From a phage, in the sequence record PZ793367.1: a stretch of 62,283 nucleotides of DNA; one strand, given 5' to 3'. The notes under the pieces are model-generated. The model searched no databases. It was given only the letters and a program-made list of their open reading frames with translations, and was not told the origin of the DNA. The first letter of the stretch is position 1. The number at the start of each line of letters is the position of its first letter. Both the position numbers and the translations under genes were made by a program. Positions 46,781 to 61,852 of the stretch are shown one piece after another.

Positions 46781-46809
46781 AATATAGGTTAGTTAAATCT
46801 GACTGTCAA
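46781..46809 (-). promoter_or_regulatory. sigma70-like promoter TTGACA-17-TATATT
   Basis: Perfect -35 at 46804-46809, -10 at 46781-46786, intergenic between phoH and the next gene. Confidence 0.5.
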
Positions 46810-46814
46810 TAGAT

Positions 46815-47510
46815 TTATTCGTAGGCTTCTAACGCGAGTCTACAAATATGTGATCTAACGCAATCATTTTTGTGGAAGAGAATACCCTGAACGTCATCAG
46901 AGTCCTGGAACCGTGCTAACGCATCGCTGAGTCCGTCCGGCACGCCCTTCGGTAAGTCGCACTGAGTGATGTCACCGTTAACGACCACGATGCAGTTGTC
47001 ACCGATACGCGTCAGGAAGAGTTTCATCTGCTTAGGTGTGACGTTCTGCGCTTCGTCGAGGATGATAAACGCATTGTCAAAGCTGCGGCCCCGCATGTAG
47101 GCGAACGGTGCAATCTCAATCTTGCCGTGCTCCATGCAGTATTTGAAATGCGTCTCGCCCAGGCGTTTAATCAGCGTGTCCTTAACCGGACGGAAGTACG
47201 GATCAAACTTCTCTGCCAGACCTCCCGGCAGGAAGCCCATGTCTTCGTCAGCATTGAGTACGGGACGTGTGACAACGATGCGTTCGACAATCTTATCGGT
47301 GAGATACTCCGCAGCTTTGCAGGCTGCAATAAACGTTTTACCGCACCCAGCCTCGCCGCTCGCAAATATAAGTGACTTAGTTCGGATGGCCTCAAGATAG
47401 GATTCCTGATTTACGGTGCGCGGTTCAATCGGCGATTTGTCTGCGCGGGTGACGGGGGAAGGGTTGGTGTTGAACTCTACAACTTCAGCGGTGTTGCGTT
47501 TCTTACTCAT
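46815..47510 (-). CDS. phoH: PhoH-like ATPase
   Basis: Walker A GEAGCGKTF and FIILDEAQN; ATG at 47510 with GAGGTG RBS. Confidence 0.8.
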   Translation of the reverse strand: MSKKRNTAEVVEFNTNPSPVTRADKSPIEPRTVNQESYLEAIRTKSLIFASGEAGCGKTFIAACKAAEYLTDKIVERIVVTRPVLNADEDMGFLPGGLAEKFDPYFRPVKDTLIKRLGETHFKYCMEHGKIEIAPFAYMRGRSFDNAFIILDEAQNVTPKQMKLFLTRIGDNCIVVVNGDITQCDLPKGVPDGLSDALARFQDSDDVQGILFHKNDCVRSHICRLALEAYE

Positions 47511-47529
47511 AGAGCACCTCGTTTGAGAG

Positions 47530-47547
47530 GGGCGCGGAATTGCGCCC
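47530..47547 (-). other. GC hairpin in phoH 5' leader
   Basis: GGGCGC-GGAATT-GCGCCC about 20 nt upstream of phoH start. Confidence 0.4.
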
Positions 47548-47555
47548 ATCATTTG

Positions 47556-47747
47556 CTACAGCCAGCCAGCGATTGCGCCCGGTAAGAAGGTGAAAATTCC
47601 TACGATGCGCATCACTACTTCGGCGGTGGTATCATCTGGATGGCCTCCACCAATATACGACAGGCAGTGCGCCAGATTCAAGAACCAGCCTGTGATGCCA
47701 GCCAGAATAACACCCCAAATTGCACCTATTGCAATGATACTTTTCAT
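47556..47747 (-). CDS. small membrane protein
   Basis: 63 aa, two hydrophobic segments. Confidence 0.4.
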   Translation of the reverse strand: MKSIIAIGAIWGVILAGITGWFLNLAHCLSYIGGGHPDDTTAEVVMRIVGIFTFLPGAIAGWL

Positions 47748-48229
47748 GCTTTTCTACTCCCCCGTGGCCGCGTGACGTGACGCGTGATGTTGTGCTGTTT
47801 GCACAGTTTATAAATGCGTGATGAAAACACCCCAATCACAGCAGCGTAATCGCTGGCGGTCATGGTTAGCATCGCTTTACGCAGATGATTGATGTCTACC
47901 TTCACGCCCTTCTCAGGACTTTTCCAGCCGTACTTCTTGCGCACCGTATCAAGCTGGCGCGGGAGGATTCCCAGCAGTTTGGCAGCTTCGACACGCGACT
48001 TACGCTCGACGATCATTTTGTTCATCGGCGTGTTTGCTACCGGTACCCGGTACCGCTCGATAGGTTGCCAGTTCTGCCAGACTACCCGATGTTTGTAACG
48101 ATGGTTGACACGCTGGACCGCCCGATATTTTCCTTTGTGCGTCACGACGCAGTAAGGTTTGTTGAGCACCGCAGACATACGTTCAGCCTGCTTGATGGCC
48201 TCGTCCAGAGTGTCACAGGTGATTGCCAT
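47744..48229 (-). CDS. putative DNA-binding protein
   Basis: 161 aa, basic, HTH-like EAAKLLGILPRQLDTVRK. Confidence 0.4.
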   Translation of the reverse strand: MAITCDTLDEAIKQAERMSAVLNKPYCVVTHKGKYRAVQRVNHRYKHRVVWQNWQPIERYRVPVANTPMNKMIVERKSRVEAAKLLGILPRQLDTVRKKYGWKSPEKGVKVDINHLRKAMLTMTASDYAAVIGVFSSRIYKLCKQHNITRHVTRPRGSRKA

Positions 48230-48420
48230 TAGCGACGCGCCTTACCACGACTACGGCCGGGGAGTGCACGAACTTCTAAAGGAATGATGCGAACACCTTT
48301 GCGGGTATAGCGCTTCGTGTACGTTACGATCTCGGTGCGCTGCGGTGGTGCCAGGTCACGCAGAGCAGCGGCGAAAGGTGTAGAGAAAGCGTTACCGAAC
48401 AGCATTTTAAATAAGCTCAT
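48229..48420 (-). CDS. hypothetical basic protein
   Basis: 63 aa, AGGAAAA RBS, downstream of promoter P4. Confidence 0.4.
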   Translation of the reverse strand: MSLFKMLFGNAFSTPFAAALRDLAPPQRTEIVTYTKRYTRKGVRIIPLEVRALPGRSRGKARR

Positions 48421-48455
48421 ATTGATTTTCCTATTGTCGCGTTTGTAGAATAATG

Positions 48456-48484
48456 AATTTAGTATAGTCGTCCCTGACTGTCAA
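48456..48484 (-). promoter_or_regulatory. sigma70-like promoter TTGACA-17-TAAATT
   Basis: -35 at 48479-48484; spacer GTCAGGGACG conserved with promoter at 61016-61044. Confidence 0.4.
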
Positions 48485-48488
48485 GTAA

Positions 48489-49118
48489 TTAATCCGCGCT
48501 AATGAATGAATCCACATCCGGCGGCCACACGTCTTGCGGCTGCGGCGGTAACGCGGGTTTGTTATTGAGTTTGGCGTAAGCCTTACACACCCACTCAACC
48601 TGGTACCGGGCATCATGCAGCGCGTTATGATACTGGATATGTGCCGGACGCGTGCGGGGCATCTGCATACCTGCAAGCATCATGATTGTGCGCATGTCGT
48701 AGATATTCCAGTATTTCCACGGGTATTGATGTCCATACGTGCTGATCACAGGGTTGGTTTGACGTAGCCACCATTCAAGCTGGGCGATGTCCATCACCGA
48801 TCCGTTACCCCAAATGCCGGAGTTGCCCAGGTTGTATTTATAGAACCACTCACGCAGGCTGCGCGCCACGTTTCGCGGGTCGCTGGTACCGTTGTACGCT
48901 TCAGCCCTGGCCGCCTCGTCCTGATCTTCCCACCACTTCAGGGTAGAAAGGCTGGGCGTGCCGTACTTCTGCGCCAGATTGCGGTCCATGCGCTCGTAAA
49001 ACTCTGCCACAATCTCACCGCTGGTGATGTCGAACGCTACCAGGCCGATGGTAAGGATTGGACCGTTTGGCTCGACGCTGAGGTTCTCAACGTCTGCCAT
49101 CACATGAATATTACTCAC
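48489..49118 (-). CDS. DnaQ-like (DEDDh) 3'-5' exonuclease
   Basis: MADVEN, WGNGSVMD and HNALHDARY exonuclease motifs; GTG start with GAAGGAG RBS. Confidence 0.7.
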   Translation of the reverse strand: MSNIHVMADVENLSVEPNGPILTIGLVAFDITSGEIVAEFYERMDRNLAQKYGTPSLSTLKWWEDQDEAARAEAYNGTSDPRNVARSLREWFYKYNLGNSGIWGNGSVMDIAQLEWWLRQTNPVISTYGHQYPWKYWNIYDMRTIMMLAGMQMPRTRPAHIQYHNALHDARYQVEWVCKAYAKLNNKPALPPQPQDVWPPDVDSFISAD

Positions 49119-49351
49119 GGCTTAAGCTCCTTCAGTGAGTCGCGCCAGTCGACAACTTGCGTGTCGAGTTTCGGGCAGTCGGTAACGTAACAGGTTTCGA
49201 CAGCACCGTAACCGTTTCGAGGCCACCATACTTCAGCTAAAATGAATGGCTTACCTACGAACGCGTAAACCGTTCCGTCACCGTCAGCCGCCAGATGAGT
49301 GGCTCTATTAGGTACGTCCACCGCATACCCAAAGTATTCAACTGTTTTCAC
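49115..49351 (-). CDS. hypothetical protein
   Basis: 78-aa ORF, translationally coupled to neighbours. Confidence 0.5.
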   Translation of the reverse strand: MKTVEYFGYAVDVPNRATHLAADGDGTVYAFVGKPFILAEVWWPRNGYGAVETCYVTDCPKLDTQVVDWRDSLKELKP

Positions 49352-49842
49352 TTATTACTCTCCCCATCCAGTACGGCAGCGCACAGGCTATCAACCTGCA
49401 CCACGATCACCCGGTCTGAAAGCGCTTCGAATGCTGCGCAAACTTTAGGGTCATCCTCAAAGCACGTAAATTTCTCAGTGCCGTAGGTCTTCAGCAGGCG
49501 GAGCAGGGCATCAGCTTTGAACTCTTCCGCGCTGCGGTGGTCGTCCATCGGTCGCATCTGCAACTTAATGAGCGTGCGGCTTAACTCCAGATCATTATGC
49601 AGGCGGTCCATCGTCGGCAGGTAGGCAGACTTACCGCGCCCGGTAAGGAAGCGCACATCTTCGCCACTGGCTAACAGTTGTTTGATGATAGCCAGCATGT
49701 TAGGGATCGGCTTATCACCACGGCACGCACCATTAAACTGCGCCCAGGCTTCGGTGCTGTTGCGTTGGTCGCCAGTCGGCATCAGGTGCGCGCGGTGGCG
49801 ATTGTCGTACAGGGTACCGTCTAAATCACAGATGTAGATCAT
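49348..49842 (-). CDS. HAD-superfamily phosphatase
   Basis: DLDGTL motif I at N-terminus; GGAGATG RBS. Confidence 0.65.
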   Translation of the reverse strand: MIYICDLDGTLYDNRHRAHLMPTGDQRNSTEAWAQFNGACRGDKPIPNMLAIIKQLLASGEDVRFLTGRGKSAYLPTMDRLHNDLELSRTLIKLQMRPMDDHRSAEEFKADALLRLLKTYGTEKFTCFEDDPKVCAAFEALSDRVIVVQVDSLCAAVLDGESNK

Positions 49843-49897
49843 TTCAATATCATCTCCAGCACTTTATAGAATCCGTAACACAGTACGATAAAAACTA

Positions 49898-50239
49898 TTA
49901 ACGCGAATAGCGAGTCCATAACTTTAAAGTCTCCGTAAAAATATACTCGGCCAGGTAGGTTAGTGCTTCATGGTTGTCATGGTCAACCCTGATCCCTACG
50001 TGATTTAAAACATCCCATGCTGAGTGTATAGCTTCGTGCATCACCAGCGACGGTGAAGGCTCCCTGATATACACCACACATGGCCCTATGTGCTCAACGG
50101 TAGCGAAGGCGTTTGTTAATGCGTAATCATCGCCCTTGCGGTCCGGGAAGTCCTTCAGGTATTTTTCCAGGCTGAAGTAGACCCGGAGTTTTCCTGGGTA
50201 GATTTTGAATTTGATGATGCCGTCTGCCATAGTACCCAC
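49898..50239 (-). CDS. small HExxH-motif protein (possible mini-metallopeptidase)
   Basis: VMHEAIHSAWD zinc-binding-like motif in a 113-aa ORF. Confidence 0.4.
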   Translation of the reverse strand: MGTMADGIIKFKIYPGKLRVYFSLEKYLKDFPDRKGDDYALTNAFATVEHIGPCVVYIREPSPSLVMHEAIHSAWDVLNHVGIRVDHDNHEALTYLAEYIFTETLKLWTRYSR

Positions 50240-50424
50240 TCGTTTCGCTCATCGCCCGGTACCAGCCAGCCTTCTTTAACCAGTTGGTCGCACGTTTCAT
50301 CAAGACTGGCGGGAACAACCTTCGCCCCCGTCAGCGCCCAGCGGTGGCCGCCTACTTGCTGCGGGTAATGGTACAGCTTCGCACCCGCTTTAAGTTCGAC
50401 CGTCAGCACATAGCCGCGCATCAT
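50155..50424 (-). CDS. hypothetical protein
   Basis: 89-aa ORF overlapping the downstream gene by about 80 bp; C-terminal part low-complexity. Confidence 0.35.
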   Translation of the reverse strand: MMRGYVLTVELKAGAKLYHYPQQVGGHRWALTGAKVVPASLDETCDQLVKEGWLVPGDERNEWVLWQTASSNSKSTQENSGSTSAWKNT

Positions 50425-50711
50425 GACTTGCTTAACTCCATACCGTCAAGCGCGAAATCCAGGATAGCCGCCGGGTCTTTCTTGCGGATAGTCTCGGCAA
50501 AAATCTTGATGGTCTTCGTGCAATTGTAAGGCGTGACCAGCTTGTCATTATTACGGTCAACCACAATACACGCCGGGATAGTGTCCTTTTCTGTCAGGAT
50601 TGACGTGTTAAAAAAGTCGTAACGGTACGGCAACGGGGTGTTAGCGTGTGCTACGTTCATGCCTACAGCCATTGCCGCGTATGCAGCCACAATCATAATA
50701 ATGTATTTCAT
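50421..50711 (-). CDS. exported periplasmic protein
   Basis: N-terminal signal peptide MKYIIMIVAAYAAMAVGMNVAHA followed by two-Cys mature domain. Confidence 0.5.
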   Translation of the reverse strand: MKYIIMIVAAYAAMAVGMNVAHANTPLPYRYDFFNTSILTEKDTIPACIVVDRNNDKLVTPYNCTKTIKIFAETIRKKDPAAILDFALDGMELSKS

Positions 50712-50974
50712 TTTAAAGTCCTCAGTGATAGGAAAAGTTTTTCGCGGCGCGACTCAAACGCCCGGCGACAGTCGTCGATTGCGGCTTGTGCTGTAAGGTA
50801 CGCATTACTTTCGTACTCACGTTCATCGTTAGCGCGAGCAACGCATACCCATGTACCGTTACGATAACGCTTCAGTAAATGCGAATCGCGTTTGTATTGA
50901 CATGCACCCATATTGTCAAAGCTGATCAGTTCCCAGCCTTCCGGTGCGATACTCAGTGCTTCGTTTACGTTCAC
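50708..50974 (-). CDS. small protein of the xPxGW family
   Basis: SIAPEGWELIS motif; GTG at 50974 with AGAGGG RBS preferred because promoter P2 lies inside the longer ORF. Confidence 0.4.
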   Translation of the reverse strand: MNVNEALSIAPEGWELISFDNMGACQYKRDSHLLKRYRNGTWVCVARANDEREYESNAYLTAQAAIDDCRRAFESRREKLFLSLRTLK

Positions 50975-51005
50975 TCGATTAACCCTCTGTGTTGTTGGTA
51001 AACTA

Positions 51006-51034
51006 AATATAATTGATGGCTTCCATGCCGTCAA
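51006..51034 (-). promoter_or_regulatory. sigma70-like promoter TTGACG-17-TATATT
   Basis: Nearly identical over about 35 nt to the promoter at 61016-61044. Confidence 0.5.
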
Positions 51035-51043
51035 GTAAATCAT

Positions 51044-51256
51044 TTACCAACTAGCAAAACATTTATCAGTCGGTTGGCGGATCATCCATTCACCATAAAT
51101 AAACTTAATCGTTAGAAACGTGTCGTTGCGGTTACCTTTAATCGCCTTAACTTTTAGCGCCCGTCTAAGGTTCCGCCAGCGCGGCTCCCATACCAGATCG
51201 CCAGGGTTAAGTTTGCCGTAGGTAGTCAGGCGGAAGTGTGGTTTATTTGTTGCCAT
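51044..51256 (-). CDS. hypothetical protein
   Basis: Internal ATG at 51256 chosen to limit overlap with upstream gene. Confidence 0.35.
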   Translation of the reverse strand: MATNKPHFRLTTYGKLNPGDLVWEPRWRNLRRALKVKAIKGNRNDTFLTIKFIYGEWMIRQPTDKCFASW

Positions 51257-51896
51257 CGGATGGTACCCCACACAGCGCGTTAAGCGTGGACACATCAAGC
51301 GCAATCTCGGTTGACTGCGGTTTCTCAGCCGCCGGGATTAACTCAGCCGCTTCCGGCCAGGCTTTTAACAGCGCGGCAACATTACGGAACGGCTTAAGCT
51401 GGGCTTTCAGTGTGGCGTGAAGGTTCTCGTAGTCCTTGCGCAGCGCCTTAGCGTCAGCATCGATCGCCATAAGCTCATCGCGTGCGGATTCATACGGGTA
51501 GACCAGACCTTCACCAACAGGCCAGGCGGGTACGATGCAATGCTCGACGTCAGCGCCGCTGTCAGCGAACAATGACCGCGCCTCATCATAACGGTTGCCG
51601 TAGTGCAGACCGTCAATGCGTAAGTTGTGACTGTGACCGCACACGTTGACGTAAAAGTAATCGCTCGTTACCTGAGCGTGAACAGTGCCGAACGCTTTTA
51701 AGTCGTCATTGATATGGTCAGCATCACGCTTGAGCGCCAAGATTTCCTCAATACTCAAGCCGGATTGCTTCAGGAAGTAGTCACGGATACGCACAGCCAC
51801 CGCAGAGCGACGGGCGCAGATGGCCTTGTCGCGTTCGACGATACCGGATTTGTGCTCGGCGTTGCGTAAGATAGCGTCTATAATTGATTGTTTCAT
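51243..51896 (-). CDS. hypothetical protein adjacent to methyltransferase-like gene
   Basis: 217-aa ORF, start overlaps methyltransferase-like stop (TAATG). Confidence 0.5.
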   Translation of the reverse strand: MKQSIIDAILRNAEHKSGIVERDKAICARRSAVAVRIRDYFLKQSGLSIEEILALKRDADHINDDLKAFGTVHAQVTSDYFYVNVCGHSHNLRIDGLHYGNRYDEARSLFADSGADVEHCIVPAWPVGEGLVYPYESARDELMAIDADAKALRKDYENLHATLKAQLKPFRNVAALLKAWPEAAELIPAAEKPQSTEIALDVSTLNALCGVPSDGNK

Positions 51897-52594
51897 TATT
51901 TGTTAGCCTCATATACTGCACGGGCAAAGCCGCGCGGGGTTAATGATCGGATGGTTTTAGTCTTCGCAGACTTGCCGCCTAACTTGTGGTACTGTTTGCT
52001 GTACCCTGGCGGGATGGGTATTGGCAATTTAACAGGATACCGGAAGCCGTTACCCGTCCAAAGGTTTGTAGTCTTCGGATACATGTCGCGCGCTTCGATG
52101 TACTCAGGGAAGAACGGATTAATGTCATCTTCCGGCAGGTACCCGGCAAACTCCCACGGCTGGAAAGTATAATCAGGCTTTTGCCATAGCGTTGATAATA
52201 CTCCGCGCGGGTTCTCCACCATGTACGGAACGTTAAACCAGCACCCTAAACCCTCGGCAATGCGTGCGGTCTTCGTGGCCTCAATCTGAAAATCAGGATT
52301 CTTCTCACGCTTTCGCGGGAAGGCTGGCGCACCGGATACCGCTAAATCCGTGCACGGTGGGAAAGCAAAAATTAAATCCGGTGTTCCCCACTCACCCGCG
52401 ATCGCCTTCAGAGTCCACAGGCTATCAATCCAGGCGTTTACGTAGTGAATGTTTGGATGCTCCACTCGGCACCCGAATTTAGTGTAAGGCCCGTGGTCGC
52501 CCTCGTCCGCGTTGAAGCAGTAGACGGTATGACCCGCCTCCGCCCACGGCTGACCCATCAGGCCGGACCCGTCGAACAGGGACCAGATGATCAT
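51896..52594 (-). CDS. truncated DNA (cytosine-5)-methyltransferase-like protein
   Basis: SLFDGSGL (motif I FxGxG), FAFPPCTDLAVSG (motif IV with PCT instead of PCQ), MVENPRGV (motif VI ENV); only 232 aa, no obvious target-recognition domain. Confidence 0.55.
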   Translation of the reverse strand: MIIWSLFDGSGLMGQPWAEAGHTVYCFNADEGDHGPYTKFGCRVEHPNIHYVNAWIDSLWTLKAIAGEWGTPDLIFAFPPCTDLAVSGAPAFPRKREKNPDFQIEATKTARIAEGLGCWFNVPYMVENPRGVLSTLWQKPDYTFQPWEFAGYLPEDDINPFFPEYIEARDMYPKTTNLWTGNGFRYPVKLPIPIPPGYSKQYHKLGGKSAKTKTIRSLTPRGFARAVYEANK

Positions 52595-52827
52595 TGCATT
52601 TTCTCCAGACCTTTACGCGCACAGTCAACCATGCGTTCGATCACATCTTCCGGCACCATTGCCTGAGTGAGCATCACCTTGCTAACAACGCGCGATATAC
52701 CCACCTGCGCCCCGGATACATGGTCGTAACCACGCCAGACAAATTTAATACAGTGTGCATCAGTTGAGATTTCACAGCGAAAACCGTCGATGTGCACCAG
52801 TTCCAGCAGCTTCATAAAGTCAATCAT
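52591..52827 (-). CDS. hypothetical protein
   Basis: 78-aa ORF. Confidence 0.4.
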   Translation of the reverse strand: MIDFMKLLELVHIDGFRCEISTDAHCIKFVWRGYDHVSGAQVGISRVVSKVMLTQAMVPEDVIERMVDCARKGLEKMQ

Positions 52828-53003
52828 CGTGTTTTCTCCAGCCGCTCCAGTCGGTCAAATAGCGCGTCTATAGCATCATTGCGTACCAGCGGATCGACTT
52901 CTTGTTTGCGTCCGCACGTCAGGCAATAGACCTCATCTTTCAGAACCTGGCGTGCTGTAGGTTGCTCCACTGCCGCGCCGCACTTGCAATAAGCCCATGC
53001 CAT
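52824..53003 (-). CDS. small zinc-ribbon protein
   Basis: CKCGAAVEQ...CLTCGRKQ; internal ATG at 53003. Confidence 0.4.
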   Translation of the reverse strand: MAWAYCKCGAAVEQPTARQVLKDEVYCLTCGRKQEVDPLVRNDAIDALFDRLERLEKTR

Positions 53004-53004
53004 A

Positions 53005-53232
53005 TTATTTACCCCACCATTTCTTTTTCTTTTCCAGCCAGGCGCAAGCCTCGTTGATAGTGTTGTAATTCTGCGACATCTCGCCGTTGTAGCGTGCGAA
53101 ATATCCCTCATAAAATTTAACAATTTCGTTCCCGTTGCGATCCGCCCACACCGCCGAGTCGTTGCGACTGTCAAAGCTGGTCAGCTTAAAGCCGCCAGGT
53201 GTTAACGCTAAAGCCTGCTCGATGGTCATCAT
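53005..53232 (-). CDS. small protein of the xPxGW family
   Basis: ALTPGGFKL ... NEACAWLEKK pattern shared with family members. Confidence 0.45.
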   Translation of the reverse strand: MMTIEQALALTPGGFKLTSFDSRNDSAVWADRNGNEIVKFYEGYFARYNGEMSQNYNTINEACAWLEKKKKWWGK

Positions 53233-53423
53233 GATATTAATTCCCCTACCGTTACATTGAGCGCCGCAGCTAACTCGGTTAGCGTTTTCAGGCGCGGATT
53301 GTTCGCTTTAAGTACCATGAACAGAGCGCCACGTTTCCAGCCTGCGCGCCGTTCCACCTCACTAAGACTTATGGCCTCCCGCTCGGCCAGGTATTGCACA
53401 CGGGCTTTTAAATTAATCGCCAT
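53229..53423 (-). CDS. Cro/C1-type (XRE-family) helix-turn-helix regulator
   Basis: LSEVERRAGWKRGALFMV...LTELAAALNVTVGELI; ATG at 53423 sits 4 nt after a UUCG hairpin. Confidence 0.6.
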   Translation of the reverse strand: MAINLKARVQYLAEREAISLSEVERRAGWKRGALFMVLKANNPRLKTLTELAAALNVTVGELIS

Positions 53424-53429
53424 AGTTTG

Positions 53430-53443
53430 GGGGCCGAAGCCCC
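53430..53443 (-). other. GGGGC-UUCG-GCCCC hairpin in 5' leader of HTH regulator gene
   Basis: Identical core to hairpins at 3285 and 10395. Confidence 0.45.
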
Positions 53444-53451
53444 ACCCTTTA

Positions 53452-53637
53452 TTACTTTTCACCACCCTTAGCCACAGCATCACGCGACGTCTGCGCGTTC
53501 TCGGCGCGTTGCTGCGCGTTAGGTGAATCGGACTCAGCGCGCCCGGTTTGACCGGATACGTTTGGATTGTACCCGACGTTAGCAGAGCAACCAGCCAGCA
53601 GAGTAGCCAGGATGATAGCGATGATAGATTTAGACAT
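53452..53637 (-). CDS. small lipoprotein
   Basis: MSKSIIAIILATLLAGCS lipobox; AGGAG RBS at ATG 53637. Confidence 0.5.
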   Translation of the reverse strand: MSKSIIAIILATLLAGCSANVGYNPNVSGQTGRAESDSPNAQQRAENAQTSRDAVAKGGEK

Positions 53638-53699
53638 GTTTGAAGCTCCTATTGTTTGTGATGGAAAGGAGGCCGCCACCACGTCGACCATAAAATTTG

Positions 53700-53816
53700 T
53701 TAACGCCAGAGTTCTACCGGAAGACCGAACACGAACCGGAGAACCGCCCACACTGCAACCATTGACATCACCCACAATGCCAGGGAAAAGGCAAGACCTG
53801 TGATTATGCTTTGCAT
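53700..53816 (-). CDS. tiny transmembrane peptide (38 aa), unlisted in ORF track
   Basis: MQSIITGLAFSLALWVMSMVAVWAVLRFVFGLPVELWR; AAGG RBS; TAATG overlap with upstream peptide. Confidence 0.4.
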   Translation of the reverse strand: MQSIITGLAFSLALWVMSMVAVWAVLRFVFGLPVELWR

Positions 53817-53950: not shown

Positions 53951-54296
53951 AGATCCCCCCGCAGTGTTTCATTGCGTCGTACAGGTTAGAAAATGCCATA
54001 CCTTGTGTAAGGCCGTTCATGGTGTACCATTTACCGTTACGCTCGTCCAGCTTGATAGCCCGGTTTAACGCATTGTGATAAAGGGCGTTCCCACCGTACA
54101 CGCGGACCATGTAAACTTCCCCGTTGCGTGCGGTCACTGACACGGTGATCAGATGACCTTCCTCGGTACCCACCAGGGTAGCACCGTCACAAAAGTAAAT
54201 GTTATCGCCCTGGTGCTCGCTGCGCTCCAGCGGAAAGTCTGTAATATGCGCGACGGCAGCAATGATTCTCGGTAAGTTACTCACAGGAACCCCCAC
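53937..54296 (-). CDS. hypothetical protein (GTG start, uncertain)
   Basis: 119-aa ORF beginning at GTG without clear RBS. Confidence 0.35.
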   Translation of the reverse strand: MGVPVSNLPRIIAAVAHITDFPLERSEHQGDNIYFCDGATLVGTEEGHLITVSVTARNGEVYMVRVYGGNALYHNALNRAIKLDERNGKWYTMNGLTQGMAFSNLYDAMKHCGGIYGWF

Positions 54297-54446
54297 ATTT
54301 CACAAATATATTTCACGGTTGCCGATATTGCGATCAGCGTCATGCAAGCACTTAACACAGCTACTAAATGATCTTTCACAGGAAACCCCACAACGTTAAC
54401 GAAAGATAGCCCAGCGTTACATAGAAACCGATTGTTAATGTAGTGC

Positions 54447-54725
54447 TCACTGGCTGGCCTCCTTCACCATCCGGGCAGCTTCGCGCATTATCTTAGCGCG
54501 GTTGGCTACCGTGGACTTGATACCGTGCTGAGCTAACAGGCGGCGCGTCGTGGTAAACTGGTGCGGCGGGAAGATAGCCGCAAAAAAGTTGTCGTCGTAA
54601 CGCTCCAGTCGGTCGAGGTCCACCAGGTCAGCTACTGCGTGACGCATAGCCTTTGATACAAAGATTGACCAGTCGGTACCCTCCGGTGCCTTGCGTGCTA
54701 AGGTATTCATGACACCATCTCCCAT
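54447..54725 (-). CDS. hypothetical protein
   Basis: 92-aa ORF. Confidence 0.4.
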   Translation of the reverse strand: MGDGVMNTLARKAPEGTDWSIFVSKAMRHAVADLVDLDRLERYDDNFFAAIFPPHQFTTTRRLLAQHGIKSTVANRAKIMREAARMVKEASQ

Positions 54726-54967
54726 GCGTGATGAACAATCTTACCCATTGCCTCATCAAAGCTATTGCATTGCACACTATCGAGATTGCGGAACCGTACC
54801 AGGTTATCGCGGTAAGCAACAGCCATCAGGTGAGCGCCATAATACAATTCGATCTCAATAGAGTGACCTTTGTTAGCCTTTATCACCCAGCCGAGCGGCA
54901 ACACGTTAGCGCGCCCGGTGTTTTCTGCATAGGCCAGCGCTTCGGCTGGCGTTGGGTATTTGTTCAT
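54707..54967 (-). CDS. small protein of the xPxGW family
   Basis: NVLPLGWVIKANKGHSIEIELYYG ... FDEAMGKI. Confidence 0.5.
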   Translation of the reverse strand: MNKYPTPAEALAYAENTGRANVLPLGWVIKANKGHSIEIELYYGAHLMAVAYRDNLVRFRNLDSVQCNSFDEAMGKIVHHAWEMVS

Positions 54968-54969
54968 GA

Positions 54970-55287
54970 TTAAAATCTCACGTTGGTGATAACGATTACC
55001 GGTTTATGACCCATGTTGTAGGTATCACCGAACAACAGCGGACCCATAGTGAAGTCACCGCGTGAAAGGTTACGTGCTGACACCGTGTATACCAGACCGT
55101 TATGCAGTACGGTATCACCCGGCTTGATTGCGCTAATGTGCTTGCCGACTAACTGCGCGTCTTTGTAAACGCGGATGTTATATTCAGGCGCTACCGTCTT
55201 TTTCAGGGAAGCGATCACCGCCTCGCTATCCAGCATGTTGATATTTTCTGCCGCCATCAGTGCCGCAATATTTTCTAATGCTTGCAT
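54970..55287 (-). CDS. hypothetical protein
   Basis: 105-aa ORF. Confidence 0.5.
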   Translation of the reverse strand: MQALENIAALMAAENINMLDSEAVIASLKKTVAPEYNIRVYKDAQLVGKHISAIKPGDTVLHNGLVYTVSARNLSRGDFTMGPLLFGDTYNMGHKPVIVITNVRF

Positions 55288-55359
55288 TTGCTTATCTCCT
55301 GTTACGGGGTGTTAGTGGTTTTATTGGGGCACCTCGCAAGATGCCCTGTAAATCCGCTA

Positions 55360-55599
55360 TTACTTGATGATGAAGGCGAATCCGGTACCGTCTGGAGTTT
55401 CGCCGCTGGCGATGATGTTCCACTCAATCCCGGTACGCTCTTTCAGGTCAGCAACCAGCGCGTTGGCCGCTTCGGTGTGCGCTTCTTTAATCTCAGCAAC
55501 CGGGTAAGCGATGGTCACTTTACCGTACCAGCATTTGGCAACGATGCGAGCGCCACGGGAGTTAGTAGGAGCCAGGAATTTAGTAATGATAGTTTGCAT
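55360..55599 (-). CDS. hypothetical protein
   Basis: 79-aa ORF. Confidence 0.5.
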   Translation of the reverse strand: MQTIITKFLAPTNSRGARIVAKCWYGKVTIAYPVAEIKEAHTEAANALVADLKERTGIEWNIIASGETPDGTGFAFIIK

Positions 55600-55652
55600 G
55601 ATATTTCTCTCTCTTTTTGAGGTGGGAAGCGGTATTGCCTCCCAGTGATTTA

Positions 55653-55681
55653 AAGATACTACTAACCAGATTTAGCGTCAA
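55653..55681 (-). promoter_or_regulatory. candidate sigma70-like promoter TTGACG-17-TATCTT
   Basis: Extended -35 ACTTGACGC matches the conserved early-promoter family; weaker -10. Confidence 0.35.
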
Positions 55682-56006
55682 GTAAATTTATCATTAATTT
55701 TATCATTTCCTCGTCGGGTCGGTAGGAATTGTCGCGGCACATCTCGTTAATTCGGTCCGAAACACTCCTAAGTTTTTGTTTTAACTCGCAATACTTCAAA
55801 TGCTCGTCATGGTTGCGAGCTATGGGGAAACATGGGTATTCATGCACGCAGCCGTCAGACTTACGCACTCTTACGCTGCGACCTCTTACAAAAACCTCTA
55901 TATATTTCCGACCAATGTTAACAACGTTACCCGGTCCACTGGTTGCAGGTCGATCGGTTTTGATAAATACAACATCACCCTTCTTTAACTCGTTCCACCA
56001 TTTCAT
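55662..56006 (-). CDS. hypothetical protein
   Basis: 114-aa ORF. Confidence 0.5.
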   Translation of the reverse strand: MKWWNELKKGDVVFIKTDRPATSGPGNVVNIGRKYIEVFVRGRSVRVRKSDGCVHEYPCFPIARNHDEHLKYCELKQKLRSVSDRINEMCRDNSYRPDEEMIKLMINLLDAKSG

Positions 56007-56332
56007 AATTGCACCACCAGCTTGATATAGTCGATGGCGTCATCCAGCGTCCTGACGTGTACCGGGGGACGGTCCCGCAGATGCACGACGATGTAATTGG
56101 TGAACTGAACGCAGCGCGCGAACTCGTCGCCGTCCGGGTAACGCACAACCCACACCGCTGATCCTTCTTTCGATACTACATAACCCTCGATGACCGGAAG
56201 GCGCGCAGGGCACTCGACAGGCGGAGCCAAATCTATGATCGCATCCTTAAGCCAGGCGGTGACCTCTGCGGGTGATTTGCCGTTTTCCAGGGCGTGCAGG
56301 GCGTTGATAATATTAGCGCGTGCATTATTCAT
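56003..56332 (-). CDS. hypothetical protein
   Basis: 109-aa ORF. Confidence 0.5.
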   Translation of the reverse strand: MNNARANIINALHALENGKSPAEVTAWLKDAIIDLAPPVECPARLPVIEGYVVSKEGSAVWVVRYPDGDEFARCVQFTNYIVVHLRDRPPVHVRTLDDAIDYIKLVVQL

Positions 56333-56742
56333 TTGTTCAGACCTCCATTAACAATAAAATTAAATGCGTCTTTAAAGTTATTAAAGCGGTGGCGCGGTAC
56401 TGTACCAGCATCGCACACCACATAACGCACACCGACTTTAACAATCTGGCCTACTCGCTTGTCGTCATGTACACGGGCAACGCGCCAGGTATGCACGCCT
56501 ATCTGCTCCGCCTTATAGCGGATTTTGAATTTAAGGTACGCCGCCAGCACCTTGTCGGCCCACTTCTGACGCTCGGATGTCGGCACAAACGACGAGCAGC
56601 GATCCGCCAACTTAAAGGTATTGACGGTTAACCCCCAGTCGTTATGACAAGAAAGGTACACCGAGAAAGGCGTGAATTGCAGGCGCACGTTGCGATACTT
56701 AAAACTCTGTTTTACTGCATGGTTAACGGTTACTTTACGCAT
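56329..56742 (-). CDS. hypothetical protein sharing a motif with the upstream gene
   Basis: NVRLQFTPFSVYL...TFKLADR...QKWADKVL. Confidence 0.5.
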   Translation of the reverse strand: MRKVTVNHAVKQSFKYRNVRLQFTPFSVYLSCHNDWGLTVNTFKLADRCSSFVPTSERQKWADKVLAAYLKFKIRYKAEQIGVHTWRVARVHDDKRVGQIVKVGVRYVVCDAGTVPRHRFNNFKDAFNFIVNGGLNK

Positions 56743-57139
56743 AATTAGTACCTTTGATTGAGCAGGTTAGAAAGAGATCCATAACATCATTCGTCCACTG
56801 TTCCCGGTCGCCTTCCTGATCGGCCAGTTTGAACATCTCCACATTGGGCGCTACCAGGTAGACCCCGGTTGTCGTGAATGACAGGCGCACGCTGGAGTAA
56901 TTGAGGCATTCATTGACAGCGTGACGCGTGTCATCGGTGCACGTTCTCGTACTCCACATAAATTTGAACTTGCTATCAGGACGGTGGACACGCACAGCCA
57001 TCTCACCGTCTGCCGTCTGCACAATACCGTAATGCCTCCCGGTTGACTGGTAGCGCACCCTGGCCGCTTTGATAGCCGCCGGGATAGACGTATATCGCCG
57101 ATAACCCGGCGCGCCTTTAAGCTGGTTGGGATGCGGCAT
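56735..57139 (-). CDS. hypothetical protein sharing a motif with the downstream gene
   Basis: SVRLSFTTTGVYL...MFKLADQ...EQWTNDVM. Confidence 0.5.
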   Translation of the reverse strand: MPHPNQLKGAPGYRRYTSIPAAIKAARVRYQSTGRHYGIVQTADGEMAVRVHRPDSKFKFMWSTRTCTDDTRHAVNECLNYSSVRLSFTTTGVYLVAPNVEMFKLADQEGDREQWTNDVMDLFLTCSIKGTNYA

Positions 57140-57452
57140 CGGCTGAACCCCAGGCGCGATCTATCAGTCCTTGCAGCGCTCCCAGTTGTGTAGCGTGGTA
57201 CCCGGCATCGCCCGGATCGCGGTCAACGTAGGCCCAGGCGTGGCCCTCAGTAGTCCGGCGCACCTTGCCGAACGCTACGTTGTTGGCGTCAACGAGGGTA
57301 TAGGTTATGGTGTGTTTACCCTCGCGCACCATGCGCCAGCCTTTAGGAATGCGTAACTGTTGCCCGTAATACTCAAAGATTGAATAGTTGACGTCGTCAA
57401 TCTGTGCTATCAGGTCTACCAGGGCGGCGCGGATCTCTGCAATAGTTTTCAT
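57117..57452 (-). CDS. small protein of the xPxGW family
   Basis: LRIPKGWRMVREGKHTITYTLVD ... ALQGLIDRAW. Confidence 0.5.
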   Translation of the reverse strand: MKTIAEIRAALVDLIAQIDDVNYSIFEYYGQQLRIPKGWRMVREGKHTITYTLVDANNVAFGKVRRTTEGHAWAYVDRDPGDAGYHATQLGALQGLIDRAWGSADAASQPA

Positions 57453-58069
57453 AATTCATTGGCCTTATTGTTGAGCCACTTGATGGCGTCTTGTTGAGTT
57501 TTAAAAGTGGTTTTGTATTTGCAATCCCACCAGATTGCATGGTCACCGTTTAACTTCCGGTATGCTGATCCACGTCTGAAGCCGCGCTGGTCGCTCAGGG
57601 TGATGGTGTCGCTTTCATGGTTGATGGCTATAACCCAGCCTTTAGGCAGATTTACCGGTACGCCCAGGAAATGCGGCTGATTCTCGGCTGGCACGTTGAC
57701 GGAGGCATTACTCAGGCAGCATAACGCGCCCGGTAAATGACTGAAGTCGCCAATAGTCACACCGTCAAAGCTGACGACATAACGGTTGGTTGTTTTTGTC
57801 TTGCATACGTGACCACGTTGACGCGTCCGGTCATGCAGGGTAAACACTACACAGCCTTGAGTGTGCTGTACCAGATCCCAATACTCAGGGAATGCGATAG
57901 ACACGCCGCAGACATCAATGATTCGCGTATTTGGTGCAGCGTCAACATGCGGCGTTAAGTGCGCGATGATTGCGTCAAGCGCCTCGATTAACTCATAAGC
58001 CGGGGCCGTCTTCGGGATAATGCAGGCATAATCATCCCGCAGGTTCTGATAGTAGCTTAAAGTTTTCAT
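57449..58069 (-). CDS. protein with C-terminal xPxGW-family domain
   Basis: VNLPKGWVIAINHESDTITLSD ... QQDAIKWLNNK. Confidence 0.5.
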   Translation of the reverse strand: MKTLSYYQNLRDDYACIIPKTAPAYELIEALDAIIAHLTPHVDAAPNTRIIDVCGVSIAFPEYWDLVQHTQGCVVFTLHDRTRQRGHVCKTKTTNRYVVSFDGVTIGDFSHLPGALCCLSNASVNVPAENQPHFLGVPVNLPKGWVIAINHESDTITLSDQRGFRRGSAYRKLNGDHAIWWDCKYKTTFKTQQDAIKWLNNKANEL

Positions 58070-58320
58070 TTGGTTAATCCCTCGATTGCCTCACGGGCGT
58101 GACGCTTTGCGTCGCCGTAAGCGTTGGGCGAATACTGCGACGTTTCATGACCAGCAAACCACGCGTTAACTAATAGCTCTTTGATTAGCTCACTGTTGAG
58201 CAGGTCAAACGCGCCGTTAGTGTAAGGGTGCGTGTAAGGATTGGCCTTATTACGCTGCGTAGGGTCGCTATCTTTATCAGTCATGTGGGCGTTGTTGATC
58301 CACTTCTCGAACTCTGTCAT
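58066..58320 (-). CDS. hypothetical protein
   Basis: 84-aa ORF. Confidence 0.5.
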   Translation of the reverse strand: MTEFEKWINNAHMTDKDSDPTQRNKANPYTHPYTNGAFDLLNSELIKELLVNAWFAGHETSQYSPNAYGDAKRHAREAIEGLTK

Positions 58321-58493
58321 TTAAATTTACCCTCCAGTATTTTAGCGATGACCGCATCAATCCACATATCACGCTGCGACGGCTCATAGGTGTGGCTGAG
58401 CACCTGGCCGATAGTAGCACCTGGGGCAAACGTGGTAATCAATATCACTGTATGCCCGATAAACTTTAATTTAATGTTACTGATTGTTTGCAT
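58317..58493 (-). CDS. small ORF (58 aa) flanking the paralogue array, unlisted in ORF track
   Basis: ATG overlaps the end of the upstream paralogue, ATGA overlap with downstream gene; weakly similar to the 56-aa ORF at 59318-59488. Confidence 0.35.
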   Translation of the reverse strand: MQTISNIKLKFIGHTVILITTFAPGATIGQVLSHTYEPSQRDMWIDAVIAKILEGKFK

Positions 58494-58767
58494 GGTCTTT
58501 CACCCACTTGATGCGCTCAGGGTTAAGGTGCATGGTCGCGCCGTCAAACTCTATTTCGAATCGGTATTCACCGCCGAACGGGTAGATCGGATCGAGTCCA
58601 GCCTCTTCCAGTTGCTTCTTAATATGCCAGCGCGGCAGGCAATACGGCGCTTGCGTGACTGACATACATAATCCAACGTGACGATAGAACGGCTGGCCTT
58701 CCGGCGCGCCTTTATCCAGCCAGGCGGCATAGTCGTTATAGAATTGCTGTAATAATTTATTTTGCAT
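58477..58767 (-). CDS. paralogue 3 of tandem YPFGG-motif family
   Basis: MQNKLLQQFYNDYAAWLD...YPFGG...HLNPERIKWVKDHA. Confidence 0.6.
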   Translation of the reverse strand: MQNKLLQQFYNDYAAWLDKGAPEGQPFYRHVGLCMSVTQAPYCLPRWHIKKQLEEAGLDPIYPFGGEYRFEIEFDGATMHLNPERIKWVKDHANNQ

Positions 58768-59044
58768 GGTCTTTCACCCATTGAACGCGTAAAGGGTTGA
58801 GGTGCATAGCCCGATTCTCTAAATCTATATCGAACTGAGGCACGCCGCCGAACGGGTATAATGAATCGAGTCCGGCCTCCGCAAACTGTTTTTTAATTTC
58901 GTTAAGAGGTACGCGGTACGGTCGTTTCATTGCTTGCGAGCATAAACCCTCGCCGCGCGTAAATTGCTTATCGTCTTCCGGCGCGCCAGCGTCAAGCCAG
59001 GCCGCGTAGTCGTTATAGAATTGCTGTAAGTTTTTATTGTGCAT
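58757..59044 (-). CDS. paralogue 2 of tandem YPFGG-motif family
   Basis: MHNKNLQQFYNDYAAWLD...YPFGG...HLNPLRVQWVKDHA. Confidence 0.6.
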   Translation of the reverse strand: MHNKNLQQFYNDYAAWLDAGAPEDDKQFTRGEGLCSQAMKRPYRVPLNEIKKQFAEAGLDSLYPFGGVPQFDIDLENRAMHLNPLRVQWVKDHAK

Positions 59045-59321
59045 GGTCTTTTACCCACTTGATGCGTAAAGGGTTGATGTGATGGTCGCTATTGAATGAC
59101 TTAGTAAGATAATCCGCCTCACCGTCATTGAAAGGATACTGAAAATCAAGACCAGCCGCCTCGAACTGGCGACCCATCTCGATATAAGCGTCACGGTCGC
59201 CGCCGAACTTCCCCAGGTTATGACATAACCCAGCGTCTCGATAAAACGGTTGTTTGTGTGGCGCGCCAGCGTCAAGCCACGCGGCGTATGCGTTATAGAA
59301 TGCCTGTAATAATTTATTCAT
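59034..59321 (-). CDS. paralogue 1 of tandem YPFGG-motif family
   Basis: MNKLLQAFYNAYAAWLD...YPFNDG...HINPLRIKWVKDHA. Confidence 0.6.
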   Translation of the reverse strand: MNKLLQAFYNAYAAWLDAGAPHKQPFYRDAGLCHNLGKFGGDRDAYIEMGRQFEAAGLDFQYPFNDGEADYLTKSFNSDHHINPLRIKWVKDHAQ

Positions 59322-59488
59322 TTCAATAAATCCTCGATTGCTAAGTGGATGCCTACCAGCCGCGCCCGGTCACGCTGGGCTTTAATGCGGCTCACTACAG
59401 TGGCGAGGGACTCCCCGCCGTACAGGGTGATTTTAAACAGGGTGGTCACCCGGCTGTTATATTTTGCGCAAAGCACGTAAGGCTTCAT
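59318..59488 (-). CDS. small ORF (56 aa) flanking the paralogue array, unlisted in ORF track
   Basis: MKPYVLCAKYNSRVTTLFKITLYGGESLATVVSRIKAQRDRARLVGIHLAIEDLLK; overlaps both neighbours. Confidence 0.35.
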   Translation of the reverse strand: MKPYVLCAKYNSRVTTLFKITLYGGESLATVVSRIKAQRDRARLVGIHLAIEDLLK

Positions 59489-59753
59489 TGTAGTATTCCG
59501 TCATTTCAATTTTCATGTGGTGGCTTACGCAATCCTCGTTGGCCCATACTAGCCAGTCGCTCGGTAATGCGCAGGCAATGAACTCCTGCCAGTAGTCATA
59601 ATCGCGCTGGCTGAGCGTACCCATTGCCGCTATTTTGTTGCGTACATCGAAACCAGCGTTAAAGATTTGCTGACAGATAGCGGCCAGGGTGGGGCGCAGT
59701 GCCAGTTTGCGGAAGTAGCGCGCGTCTTCAGCGTCGATAATTTGATTGGTCAT
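59457..59753 (-). CDS. hypothetical protein
   Basis: 98-aa ORF. Confidence 0.5.
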   Translation of the reverse strand: MTNQIIDAEDARYFRKLALRPTLAAICQQIFNAGFDVRNKIAAMGTLSQRDYDYWQEFIACALPSDWLVWANEDCVSHHMKIEMTEYYNEALRALRKI

Positions 59754-59800
59754 GATTGCATCTCCTGTTAAGGGTGGGGCACGATGGCCCCGGTGGTTGA

Positions 59801-60745
59801 TTATAAGCCGTTAATGCGGTTGGCGTAGCTCACAGCGTTGTATTCGTCGTCGAACTCGTACAGGTGCTTACCGTCGAGCATTACGAAGTGACGACCTTTG
59901 TCAGTGCTGTACACGGCGCGCCCGTTGGTGATAGTGGTGTAAGCGTTGATGTCTGCCTCTGTTACCTCCAGCGCGCCCATGTTGATGAGGTTGCGGATAC
60001 CGATCTGAATGTCGACCCACTCGCGCGACTCGTTAACCCAGCGATAAACGAAACCTGACTTGCTCACCTTGTATACGGAGTCAGCCACGAAGTAACGCGG
60101 GGTTTCTTTATTGATGAAGTCGGTCAGTTGCTGTTGCTTACGCTCGAACTCTTTGCGGTTAAACTCGACCGTCAGATCCAGGTCTTCACCAGCATATAAA
60201 TGTTGCGGCGCTTTCGCCAGGTCACACAGGTCATTGTGATTGGTGATGCGTGCGTCGTGACCGTCTACGATACGCTGCGCCATACCTGCCAGCAGGTTAG
60301 CGGTGCGCTCGCGGTCCATTTTAAACGCTTCATCATGAGCGGCGGCAATGGAGTTACCGGAAAACTCGCGGTTGTCCTTGCCGTCCCAGCCCATACGGGA
60401 ATCACGGGAGTTAAGCTCAATGATGGCCGCCTCCAGGCGCTCAATCAGCTTAGCGCGACGGGTAGGAGTGGAGAAAGACAACCCGGTGTTAGCTTCGAAG
60501 TTAATGCGGTTCCACTCGGCACAAATAGCGCCAATAGCAGTTGTGTTGTCGCGAATCATACGTTCAGCAGTCTGGATCAGGAAAGTGATATTTACAACAA
60601 CAACTGAGGCCTTACCGTAATTAACGCGAACCATCATATCTTCCAGGGTAGACATGCAAGCCTCGCCGCTTTCATAGGTGCCGTGGTCGTTGCTGGTGAA
60701 AGTGATGGTTGATTTACCGTCTTTGATGATTACTGGAAATTTCAT
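59801..60745 (-). CDS. hypothetical protein (314 aa)
   Basis: ATG at 60745 (MKFPVIIKDG) preferred; upstream extension overlaps intergenic hairpin. Confidence 0.5.
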   Translation of the reverse strand: MKFPVIIKDGKSTITFTSNDHGTYESGEACMSTLEDMMVRVNYGKASVVVVNITFLIQTAERMIRDNTTAIGAICAEWNRINFEANTGLSFSTPTRRAKLIERLEAAIIELNSRDSRMGWDGKDNREFSGNSIAAAHDEAFKMDRERTANLLAGMAQRIVDGHDARITNHNDLCDLAKAPQHLYAGEDLDLTVEFNRKEFERKQQQLTDFINKETPRYFVADSVYKVSKSGFVYRWVNESREWVDIQIGIRNLINMGALEVTEADINAYTTITNGRAVYSTDKGRHFVMLDGKHLYEFDDEYNAVSYANRINGL

Positions 60746-60794
60746 TTTGTTTCTCGCTCTTATTGAGGGTGGGGCCGATGGCCCCGTCAAGTTA

Positions 60795-60977
60795 TTAATA
60801 GAAAGATACGTAAGTCGCAATGCCTTTGGCGTCATCGTTAGGCAGCGCCTTGATTGCCAGGTCGTAACCTGCATCGACTTTGGCCTTTGCGCTTTCCTCG
60901 CTGTAACCCCACATTGTCAGAATGGTCACTACGTTTTCTTTATTTACTACTTTGAGCGCTTTGGTGATACGTGCCAT
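60795..60977 (-). CDS. hypothetical small protein
   Basis: 60-aa ORF just downstream of promoter P1. Confidence 0.4.
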   Translation of the reverse strand: MARITKALKVVNKENVVTILTMWGYSEESAKAKVDAGYDLAIKALPNDDAKGIATYVSFY

Positions 60978-61015
60978 TTTGTTTCTCTCTTTCGTTAATT
61001 GGTTGGTGCAATCTA

Positions 61016-61044
61016 AATATAATTAGTGGCGTCCCTGCCGTCAA
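61016..61044 (-). promoter_or_regulatory. sigma70-like promoter TTGACG-17-TATATT
   Basis: -35 at 61039-61044, -10 at 61016-61021; member of the conserved early-promoter family. Confidence 0.5.
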
Positions 61045-61049
61045 GTGTT

Positions 61050-61802: not shown

Positions 61803-61852
61803 GTGGTTGTTGATAGAATCTTAATTATACCTTTATCACGATGATTAAGTAA
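61803..61852 (-). promoter_or_regulatory. candidate early promoter with perfect TATAAT
   Basis: -10 TATAAT at 61824-61829 (minus strand), -35 TTACTT at 61847-61852, about 27 nt before the first early gene. Confidence 0.4.

Follow-up and report, generated by a model that had tools for sequence, protein, structure and literature searches.

The window analyzed here (record PZ793367.1) is a complete Xuquatrovirus genome of 62,283 bp with 52.9% G+C (47% A+T), and the elements in question are a family of putative promoters that precede small genes on its minus strand. Over positions 46000-62000, identity is 94.8% to Escherichia phage PTXU04, a coliphage and 61.6-kb podovirus, and ~87% to the phages Pondi and HelliStehle_Bas95. 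According to the PTXU04 annotation and the list of open reading frames (ORFs), the region from 44.9 to 61.8 kb is occupied by ~45 small genes, most of them unnamed and every one on the minus strand, and the edge of this leftward cluster is a bidirectional terminator at 44.85 kb. An earlier note, made from the letters alone, had placed five leftward promoters in intergenic gaps of this cluster. When read on the minus strand, all five sites had exactly the positions, hexamers and 17-bp spacers that had been claimed, and a pattern search yielded a sixth member that the note had missed, P32711, which sits in the replication module between the DNA polymerase gene and the next small gene. The transcription start (+1) was predicted as 7 nucleotides (nt) after the -10 box. 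The sites are as follows.

61016..61044, minus strand: P61044 core, ACTTGACGG, 17-bp spacer and TATATT; predicted +1 at ~61009; start codon of the DUF7421 gene at 60977.
55600..55701, minus strand: P55681 cassette, consisting of an AT-rich upstream stretch, -35 box, spacer, -10 box, 5'-proximal hairpin, ACCTCAA and Shine-Dalgarno sequence, ahead of an ATG at 55599.
55681-55653, minus strand: P55681 boxes, -35 TTGACG (55681-55676), 17-bp spacer CTAA-N6-TTAGTAG and -10 TATCTT (55658-55653); predicted +1 at ~55646.
51006..51034, minus strand: P51034 core, ACTTGACGG, 17-bp spacer and TATATT; predicted +1 at ~50999; GTG start at 50974.
48456..48484, minus strand: P48484 core, ACTTGACAG, 17-bp spacer and TAAATT; predicted +1 at ~48449; ATG at 48420.
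46781..46809, minus strand: P46809 core, TATTGACAG, 17-bp spacer and TATATT; predicted +1 at ~46774; ATG at 46745.
32670..32713, minus strand: P32711, the sixth member (core 32711-32683), ACTTGACGG, 17-bp spacer and TACATT; predicted +1 at ~32676; ATG at 32648.

The -35 hexamer is TTGACG at four sites and TTGACA at two (i.e., 5-6 of 6 consensus positions), and the spacer is exactly 17 bp at all six. Every -10 box has the form TAnnTT, with A2 and T6 invariably present; more specifically, three sites carry TATATT (5/6 consensus) and the others TAAATT, TATCTT or TACATT (4/6). All six sites are intergenic between minus-strand genes and co-oriented with them. The 25 nt upstream of the -35 box are 64-88% A+T, versus 47% genome-wide, and usually include ATAAAT; the predicted leaders are 25-47 nt long, each with a Shine-Dalgarno sequence. 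The extended -35 motif ACTTGACRG attributed to the five original sites is exact in three of them, whereas P46809 reads TATTGACAG and P55681 reads ACTTGACGC. Likewise, the spacer word (GT/G)CAGGGACG, said to recur, is present in P48484 and P61044, whereas it is degenerate in P51034 (GCATGGAAG) and only GTCAG is found in P46809. The proposed near-identity of P61044 and P51034 held, with 32 of 37 positions matching across -37 to +8 (manual count on the alignment), as did the suggestion that the sites help define gene starts, ORF 50708..51043 being reassigned to the GTG at 50974 and ORF 59801..60874 to an ATG at 60745. The P32711 region additionally carries an inverted copy of its 9-mer ACTTGACGG at 32670-32678 and GGGG/CCCC arms around the -10 box.

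Both strands of the window together contain six matches to the pattern TTGAC-N18-TANNTT, whereas 100 dinucleotide-preserving shuffles averaged 0.32 and never exceeded 3. We also scored the genome with a generic sigma-70 matrix, the frequencies of which only approximate published E. coli compilations, so that its scores are only indicative. P46809 ranked top by this matrix, and together with P48484, P61044 and P51034 it makes up the four best matches genome-wide; at a score of ≥15.5 there were four matches, whereas 60 dinucleotide shuffles averaged 0.27 and reached 2 at most. A looser consensus scan of positions 44000-62283 returned 21 promoter-like sites versus 19.6 expected, i.e., no overall excess, and thus the signal consists of a handful of near-consensus sites. 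Two further copies of ACTTGACGG, at 15566 and 25553, lie antisense within late genes and have no -10 box; we took these to be chance occurrences.

Conservation was assessed across five genomes, namely the window, PTXU04, Pondi, HelliStehle and L011, a metagenome contig (ERZ808028 NODE-206, 59.5 kb) that was found via its exonuclease gene in a metagenome scan. Orthologues of P51034, P48484 and P46809 are present in all five, P55681-type cassettes occur in seven copies across the five, and P61044 is found only in the window and in PTXU04, where its -10 box is TATAGT. Over the four orthologous groups (P51034, P48484, P46809 and P55681 type), 0 of 48 hexamer sites are variable. Spacers show 0 of 51 variable sites in three groups and 4 of 17 in the P55681 group, and the leaders of P48484 and P46809 show 0 of 62, whereas 12-25% of sites in flanking coding DNA are variable or the flank is unalignable. 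For P48484 in particular, core plus leader contain no variable site in the five genomes, versus 25% in the flanking coding DNA; core plus leader of P46809 are equally invariant, and the P51034 core is 100% identical throughout. The conserved unit is thus the cassette as a whole, extending from about -40 up to the start codon, rather than the hexamers only, the spacer only or an operator-sized patch. In a blastn search of 50,697 phage records, the cassettes matched this genus only, besides weak 40-47-nt matches near the E-value limit.

Resemblance among the sites is uneven. In-register spacer identity reaches 13/17 for P61044 and P51034 and 10/17 for P48484 and P46809, all other pairs sharing 2-6 of 17 positions. 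Local alignment of 120-nt cassettes, judged against 500 hexamer-preserving shuffles, gave a score of 33 for P61044 and P51034, which tops all 500 null values (maximum 23); the score of P61044 with P48484 was reached by 0 of 500 shuffles and that of P48484 with P46809 by 2 of 500. Consistently, a blastn query of the P61044 region matches the P51034 orthologues in Pondi and HelliStehle. The word AGGGACG has just two occurrences in the genome, in the spacers of P61044 and P48484, where it lies one base out of register. What P55681 and P32711 share with the other members is limited to the AT-rich stretch and AC-TTGAC-G. P61044, P51034, P48484 and P46809 would accordingly be described as paralogous copies of one cassette, and the extended -35 motif and common spacer words would exist because these four members are paralogous; the similarity along the full cassette length fits what is expected of duplicated, slowly diverging cassettes.

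Two of the cassettes lie where the genomes of the relatives diverge. Breakpoints of homology, as obtained by blastn of the 44-62 kb region against the relatives, fall at 51049 (Pondi) and 50970 (HelliStehle and L011) around P51034, and at 55699-55701 on one side and 55594, 55579 and 55558 on the other side of P55681. In HelliStehle, the 95-bp stretch 55594-55688 forms an isolated homology island that is present in two direct copies 2053 bp apart, and L011 has two direct P55681-type copies 2516 bp apart. Altogether, the seven P55681-type copies have non-homologous flanks and precede at least four different genes, while the P51034 cassette is followed by either of two different genes and preceded by genes of two unrelated kinds. 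The association between cassette and breakpoint is real for these two cassettes, and qualitative in nature. At least these two may serve as short homology islands at which relatives exchange, lose or gain genes, by an inferred recombination mechanism.

Directly upstream of P55681 lies an ORF of 114 aa (55662-56006, minus strand), the stop codon of which overlaps the promoter spacer. It has no counterpart in PTXU04, Pondi, HelliStehle or L011 (blast gap 55702-56013) and represents an insertion or replacement bounded by the promoter cassette.

Hairpins accompany some of the sites and also occur in cassettes of their own.

55624..55643, minus strand: RNA hairpin of P55681, 7 bp, GGGAGGC-AAUACC-GCUUCCC, at +4 to +23 of the predicted transcript.
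60746..60794, minus strand: hairpin-only cassette with ACTTGACGG, GGGGCC-ATC-GGCCCC (60771-60785), ACCCTCAA and a Shine-Dalgarno sequence.
59754..59800, minus strand: hairpin-only cassette with GGGGCC-ATCG-TGCCCC (59776-59791), ACCCTTAA and a Shine-Dalgarno sequence; breakpoints at 59756 and 59760.

Stable stem-loops were found at two of the six promoters: the P55681 hairpin folds at -15.3 kcal/mol (z -4.7; 0 of 200 shuffles fold as well), and the P32711 region at -22.8 kcal/mol (z -4.8). Across the seven copies of the P55681 hairpin, 98% of cells pair and two pairs switch one-sidedly between G-U and G-C, with no double compensatory changes; pairing is preserved at the RNA level, but the covariation does not prove the structure. 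The hairpins in the gaps 60746-60794 and 59754-59800 are related to that of P55681 and are likewise followed by ACC(C)TYAA and a ribosome-binding site. The former cassette, next to which homology with PTXU04 breaks off at 60745, probably does not act as a promoter: its ACTTGACGG (60792-60784) was considered as part of a seventh promoter and rejected, as the -10 box is poor (CTCAAT), the "spacer" is the GC hairpin and PTXU04 has ACGTGACGG there. The gene downstream of the 59754-59800 hairpin is preceded in HelliStehle by a complete P55681-type promoter cassette instead. No part of the window scores at or above the gathering threshold of any Rfam family.

The reassigned ORF 59801..60745 (314 aa) is itself composite in appearance. 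Its first 49 codons (60598-60745, minus strand) show ~91% DNA identity to the N-terminus of an ORF of Dhillonvirus Oekolampad (1169..1648, annotated there only from a downstream start), and PTXU04 has unrelated sequence at 60598-60745. The ORF looks like a chimera, the junction of which abuts the hairpin cassette 60746-60794.

Further GC-rich hairpins without a T-tract stand directly before ribosome-binding sites at ~3286-3300 and ~10395-10410 (plus strand) and at 55315-55365 (minus strand). The late region has two copies of GGGGCTTCGGCCCC, and the 55288-55359 gap contains GGGCAUCU...AGGUGCCC. Such arrangements suggest genome-wide intercistronic RNA hairpins that might act in stability, processing or attenuation.

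The computational tests bear out the host-type promoter family that had been proposed, i.e., near-consensus hexamers, a 17-bp spacer, AT-rich upstream DNA, intergenic and co-oriented placement, short leaders and conservation. We consider it likely that the sites are strong promoters for host RNA polymerase with sigma-70, with cassette paralogy and a role in gene shuffling in addition. No RNA polymerase or sigma factor is present in the PTXU04 annotation or in rows gp01-gp79 of its HHpred table, and thus use of the host polymerase is the default reading. A virion RNA polymerase was also considered and dropped, as the 2210-aa virion-module protein shows LPD38 only, without a PDB relative or a DxDGD motif. 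Unmodified E. coli polymerase would recognize TTGACA/G, the optimal 17-bp spacer, TAnnTT and the AT-rich UP-like stretch; transcription would start ~7 nt after the -10 box, with the 25-47-nt leader ending in the ribosome-binding site of the first gene of the block. Internal promoters of this kind would re-supply transcription to gene blocks far from the right-end promoter. Early timing is suggested by gene content and layout, and promoter strength and actual initiation at the sites are predictions from their sequence.

Several strong host-type early promoters with phage-specific extra conservation, which drive the first genes to be expressed, are familiar from T7, T5 and T4. The sites described here are comparable to those early promoters (A1, A2 and A3 in T7) in being several, host-type, A/T-rich upstream and conserved beyond the hexamers. 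In T7, however, the early promoters are clustered at one genome end, whereas those described here stand at the heads of gene blocks distributed over 17 kb; moreover, the T7, T5 and T4 sequences are not homologous to the promoters here, of which activity and timing are predicted.

A closer parallel may be found in the cassettes termed PeSLs (promoter-early stem-loops), which have been described in the T4-like phages RB49/phi1, PST and nt-1 (PMC2839356; PMC4122927). In RB49/phi1, a PeSL combines a strong sigma-70-like promoter, AT-rich DNA upstream of it and a stem-loop, often of the G-run/C-run type (Arbiol et al. 2010, PMC2839356); the stem-loop may be situated upstream, between the boxes, over one of them or immediately past the -10 box (PMC2839356). 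Arbiol et al. obtained almost exclusively mutated clones of PeSL promoters. PeSLs end in a Shine-Dalgarno sequence and start codon, are concentrated ahead of ORFans and bring about modular shuffling (PMC2839356; Comeau et al. 2014, PMC4122927). Both kinds of cassette contain near-consensus sigma-70 promoters with AT-rich upstream DNA, end in a Shine-Dalgarno sequence and start codon, and recur many times among small, non-essential genes whose function is unknown. In P55681, P32711 and the 60792 cassette, as in PeSLs, a G-run/C-run stem-loop is placed between the boxes, over them or after them, and P51034 and P55681 resemble PeSLs in marking junctions of insertion, deletion or replacement and in preceding different genes. 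In contrast, the phages here belong to the unrelated podovirus genus Xuquatrovirus, four of the six promoters are without a stable stem-loop, there are ~6 cassettes rather than ~50, and two of the promoters lie within blocks that are collinear in all relatives. Given the four members without a stem-loop, and given that any PeSL activity here, whether as promoter, as terminator or attenuator of upstream transcription or in mini-circle formation between cassette pairs, is putative, we call the Xuquatrovirus cassettes "PeSL-like" by analogy and do not claim membership. More tentatively, in a reading that we hold somewhat more doubtful than probable, the cassettes may be PeSL-like mobile modules of ~70-100 bp (promoter, leader hairpin and ribosome-binding site) that drive early genes and serve as homology patches for gene swaps, perhaps via circles formed between direct copies such as the pairs in HelliStehle and L011; their strict invariance would then reflect recombination-competent identity or the binding of a phage helix-turn-helix (HTH) protein, and not polymerase alone.

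Several observations weigh against the reading of the cassettes as host-type promoters with a shuffling role. P55681 ranks only 12th by generic matrix score, with its weak -10 box TATCTT (4/6). The invariance of spacers and leaders exceeds the usual needs of sigma-70 recognition, so that some extra constraint is present, and the genomes compared are only five, closely related and with long near-identical stretches in common. P46809 and P48484 lie inside collinear blocks and not at breakpoints, and breakpoints also fall at many plain gene boundaries, which makes the link between cassette and breakpoint a qualitative one. P61044, P51034, P48484 and P46809 have no stable stem-loop (z -1.8, -2.0, -0.45 and +1.0, respectively), and for this reason the PeSL analogy is only partial. 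Finally, we found no start-site, RNA-seq or in vitro data for any Xuquatrovirus in the literature, and no promoter or transcript data on PTXU04, Pondi or HelliStehle: the word "promoter" is absent from the PTXU04 description paper, the BASEL paper calls the biology of PTXU04-like phages "enigmatic" and a full-text search by genus name found no further Xuquatrovirus study. Activity and timing of the promoters are accordingly predictions.

The following additional features enter the comparison with other explanations.

53229..53483, minus strand: HTH candidate of Cro/C1 type, just above the Pfam cut-offs for HTH_3 and HTH_26.
45618..45938, minus strand: winged-helix candidate, with matches below the Pfam cut-offs.
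44666..44854, plus strand: HTH candidate with a weak HTH_20 match.
41523..41717, plus strand: ORF of 64 aa at the position of PTXU04 gp43, which the CRISPRi-ART supplement lists with the HHpred entry "transcriptional repressor (ambiguous)".
61824..61853, minus strand: candidate first promoter TTTACT-18-TATAAT, upstream of the right-most gene (61050..61790) and outside the ACTTGAC family.

The earlier note had taken the conserved extended -35 and partly conserved spacers to imply one regulator-binding site common to the promoters. In this explanation, the promoters overlap the operator of a phage DNA-binding protein that shuts off or activates early promoters, and the invariant spacers are its binding site. 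Spacers that, in three orthologous groups, vary no more than the hexamers do (0 of 51) would agree with it, as would the P55681-family spacer, in which four variable positions lie between constant CTAA and TTAGTAG, the 8-of-11 dyad TTGAnGGC...GCCnTCAA noted by inspection at P51034, and the inverted pair of ACTTGACGG at P32711. The phage moreover encodes small HTH candidates; among HHpred rows gp01-gp79 of PTXU04, gp43, gp46, gp50 and gp70 are entered as "transcriptional repressor" or "DNA binding", all ambiguous, in agreement with our scan of the window. As with lambda PR/PL (textbook), host-type promoters conserved between and around the hexamers occur in a phage with a Cro/C1-type HTH protein, here the candidate at 53229..53483. 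However, spacers are unrelated across groups, with 2-6 of 17 positions matching in register except in the two paralogous pairs, and an exhaustive search for dyads with half-sites of 3-5 nt and gaps of 0-14 found none common to the six promoters above shuffle expectation. The CAGGGACG word is one base out of register between P61044 and P48484, the conservation spans the cassette including 30-nt leaders rather than an operator-sized patch, and the constant positions of the P55681 spacer adjoin both hexamers. Mini-stems in the spacers (GGC-N6-GCC, AGTC-N6-GACT and CTAA-N6-TTAG), which had at first seemed to covary, were dropped as insignificant (z -1.8, -2.0, -0.45, +1.0 and -0.1). Without a common dyad and with insignificant stems, a single operator for the whole family is not supported, and the similarity fits paralogy; unlike lambda with its Cro/CI operators, there is no repeated dyad operator here, the spacers differ between groups, and the phages are virulent, with no repressor/integrase module annotated. 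We found no evidence linking the HTH candidates to the promoter sites. A shared operator therefore appears unlikely to us, while it is possible that individual cassettes bind something, and that the HTH candidates act in repression.

Two other explanations concern the polymerase and the reality of the sites. Were the sites middle-class promoters, read only by host polymerase modified by the phage (through an AsiA/MotA-like appropriator/activator or a phage sigma), this would suit the location of P32711 in the replication module, the non-consensus TT at positions 5-6 of all six -10 boxes and the different kind of promoter before the right-most gene (TTTACT-18-TATAAT). A near-perfect -35 box at the optimal 17 bp is, however, the preference of the unmodified sigma-70 holoenzyme. 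In T4 middle promoters, by comparison, a MotA box at -30 replaces the -35 box. Neither the PTXU04 annotation nor HHpred rows gp01-gp79 include a sigma, AsiA-like or MotA-like protein, and we regard this explanation as very improbable. Even less credible is that the sites are chance sigma-70-like matches without promoter function. The loose scan, with its 21 sites versus 19.6 expected, would be compatible with chance, but the excess of the specific pattern (6 versus 0.32) and of high matrix scores (4 versus 0.27), the intergenic and co-oriented placement and the invariance in five genomes, even with both flanks replaced, leave the chance reading strongly disfavoured.

Returning to host-type promoters carried by duplicated cassettes, we regard the sites as ordinary in kind, and two of the cassettes appear to behave as portable units at gene-swap joints. 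The six predicted starts provide a first, predicted transcription-unit map of the PTXU04-like early region, with two gene starts corrected, and the cassettes are compact, probably very strong, candidate E. coli promoters. The occurrence of cassettes at joints suggests that PeSL-style gene shuffling may not be confined to T4-like myoviruses, an incremental point on the evolution of phage accessory regions; nothing here challenges current understanding of transcription.

Some further observations were made in the course of the analysis. The L011 contig is apparently a fifth Xuquatrovirus-like genome: its exonuclease is 94% identical to that of the window at the protein level, and the gene replacements in its early region follow a pattern of their own. 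In IMG/VR, two DNA patterns returned PTXU04 itself only, and a PhoH protein query returned PTXU04 only, plus unrelated loci at 36-43% identity.

At positions 38985-39125, the leftward replication genes and the rightward helicase operon diverge from a common intergenic region. Here, the self-complementary TTGCAA at 39062-39067 is a possible -35 box both rightward (17 nt to TATTAT) and leftward (18 nt to TATGAT), so that the region could contain back-to-back promoters with one common -35 box.

At the right end, PTXU04 gp92, the orthologue of the right-most gene, is the sole "Fit" gene among the gp51-gp92 rows of the CRISPRi-ART supplement (PMC11879866). Between the right-most leftward gene and the terminase genes is a 493-bp non-coding stretch with a 69-nt imperfect inverted repeat (61842-61910 and 61940-62008; 83% complementary, with 29 nt between the arms), which is also present in PTXU04 and overlaps the -35 box of the TTTACT-18-TATAAT candidate promoter. 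Short direct repeats, TCAAAnnnTTACCTTAnTC, adjoin it at 62075-62141. This inverted repeat (61842-62008) might function as a replication origin, mark an end of the genome or have a regulatory role.

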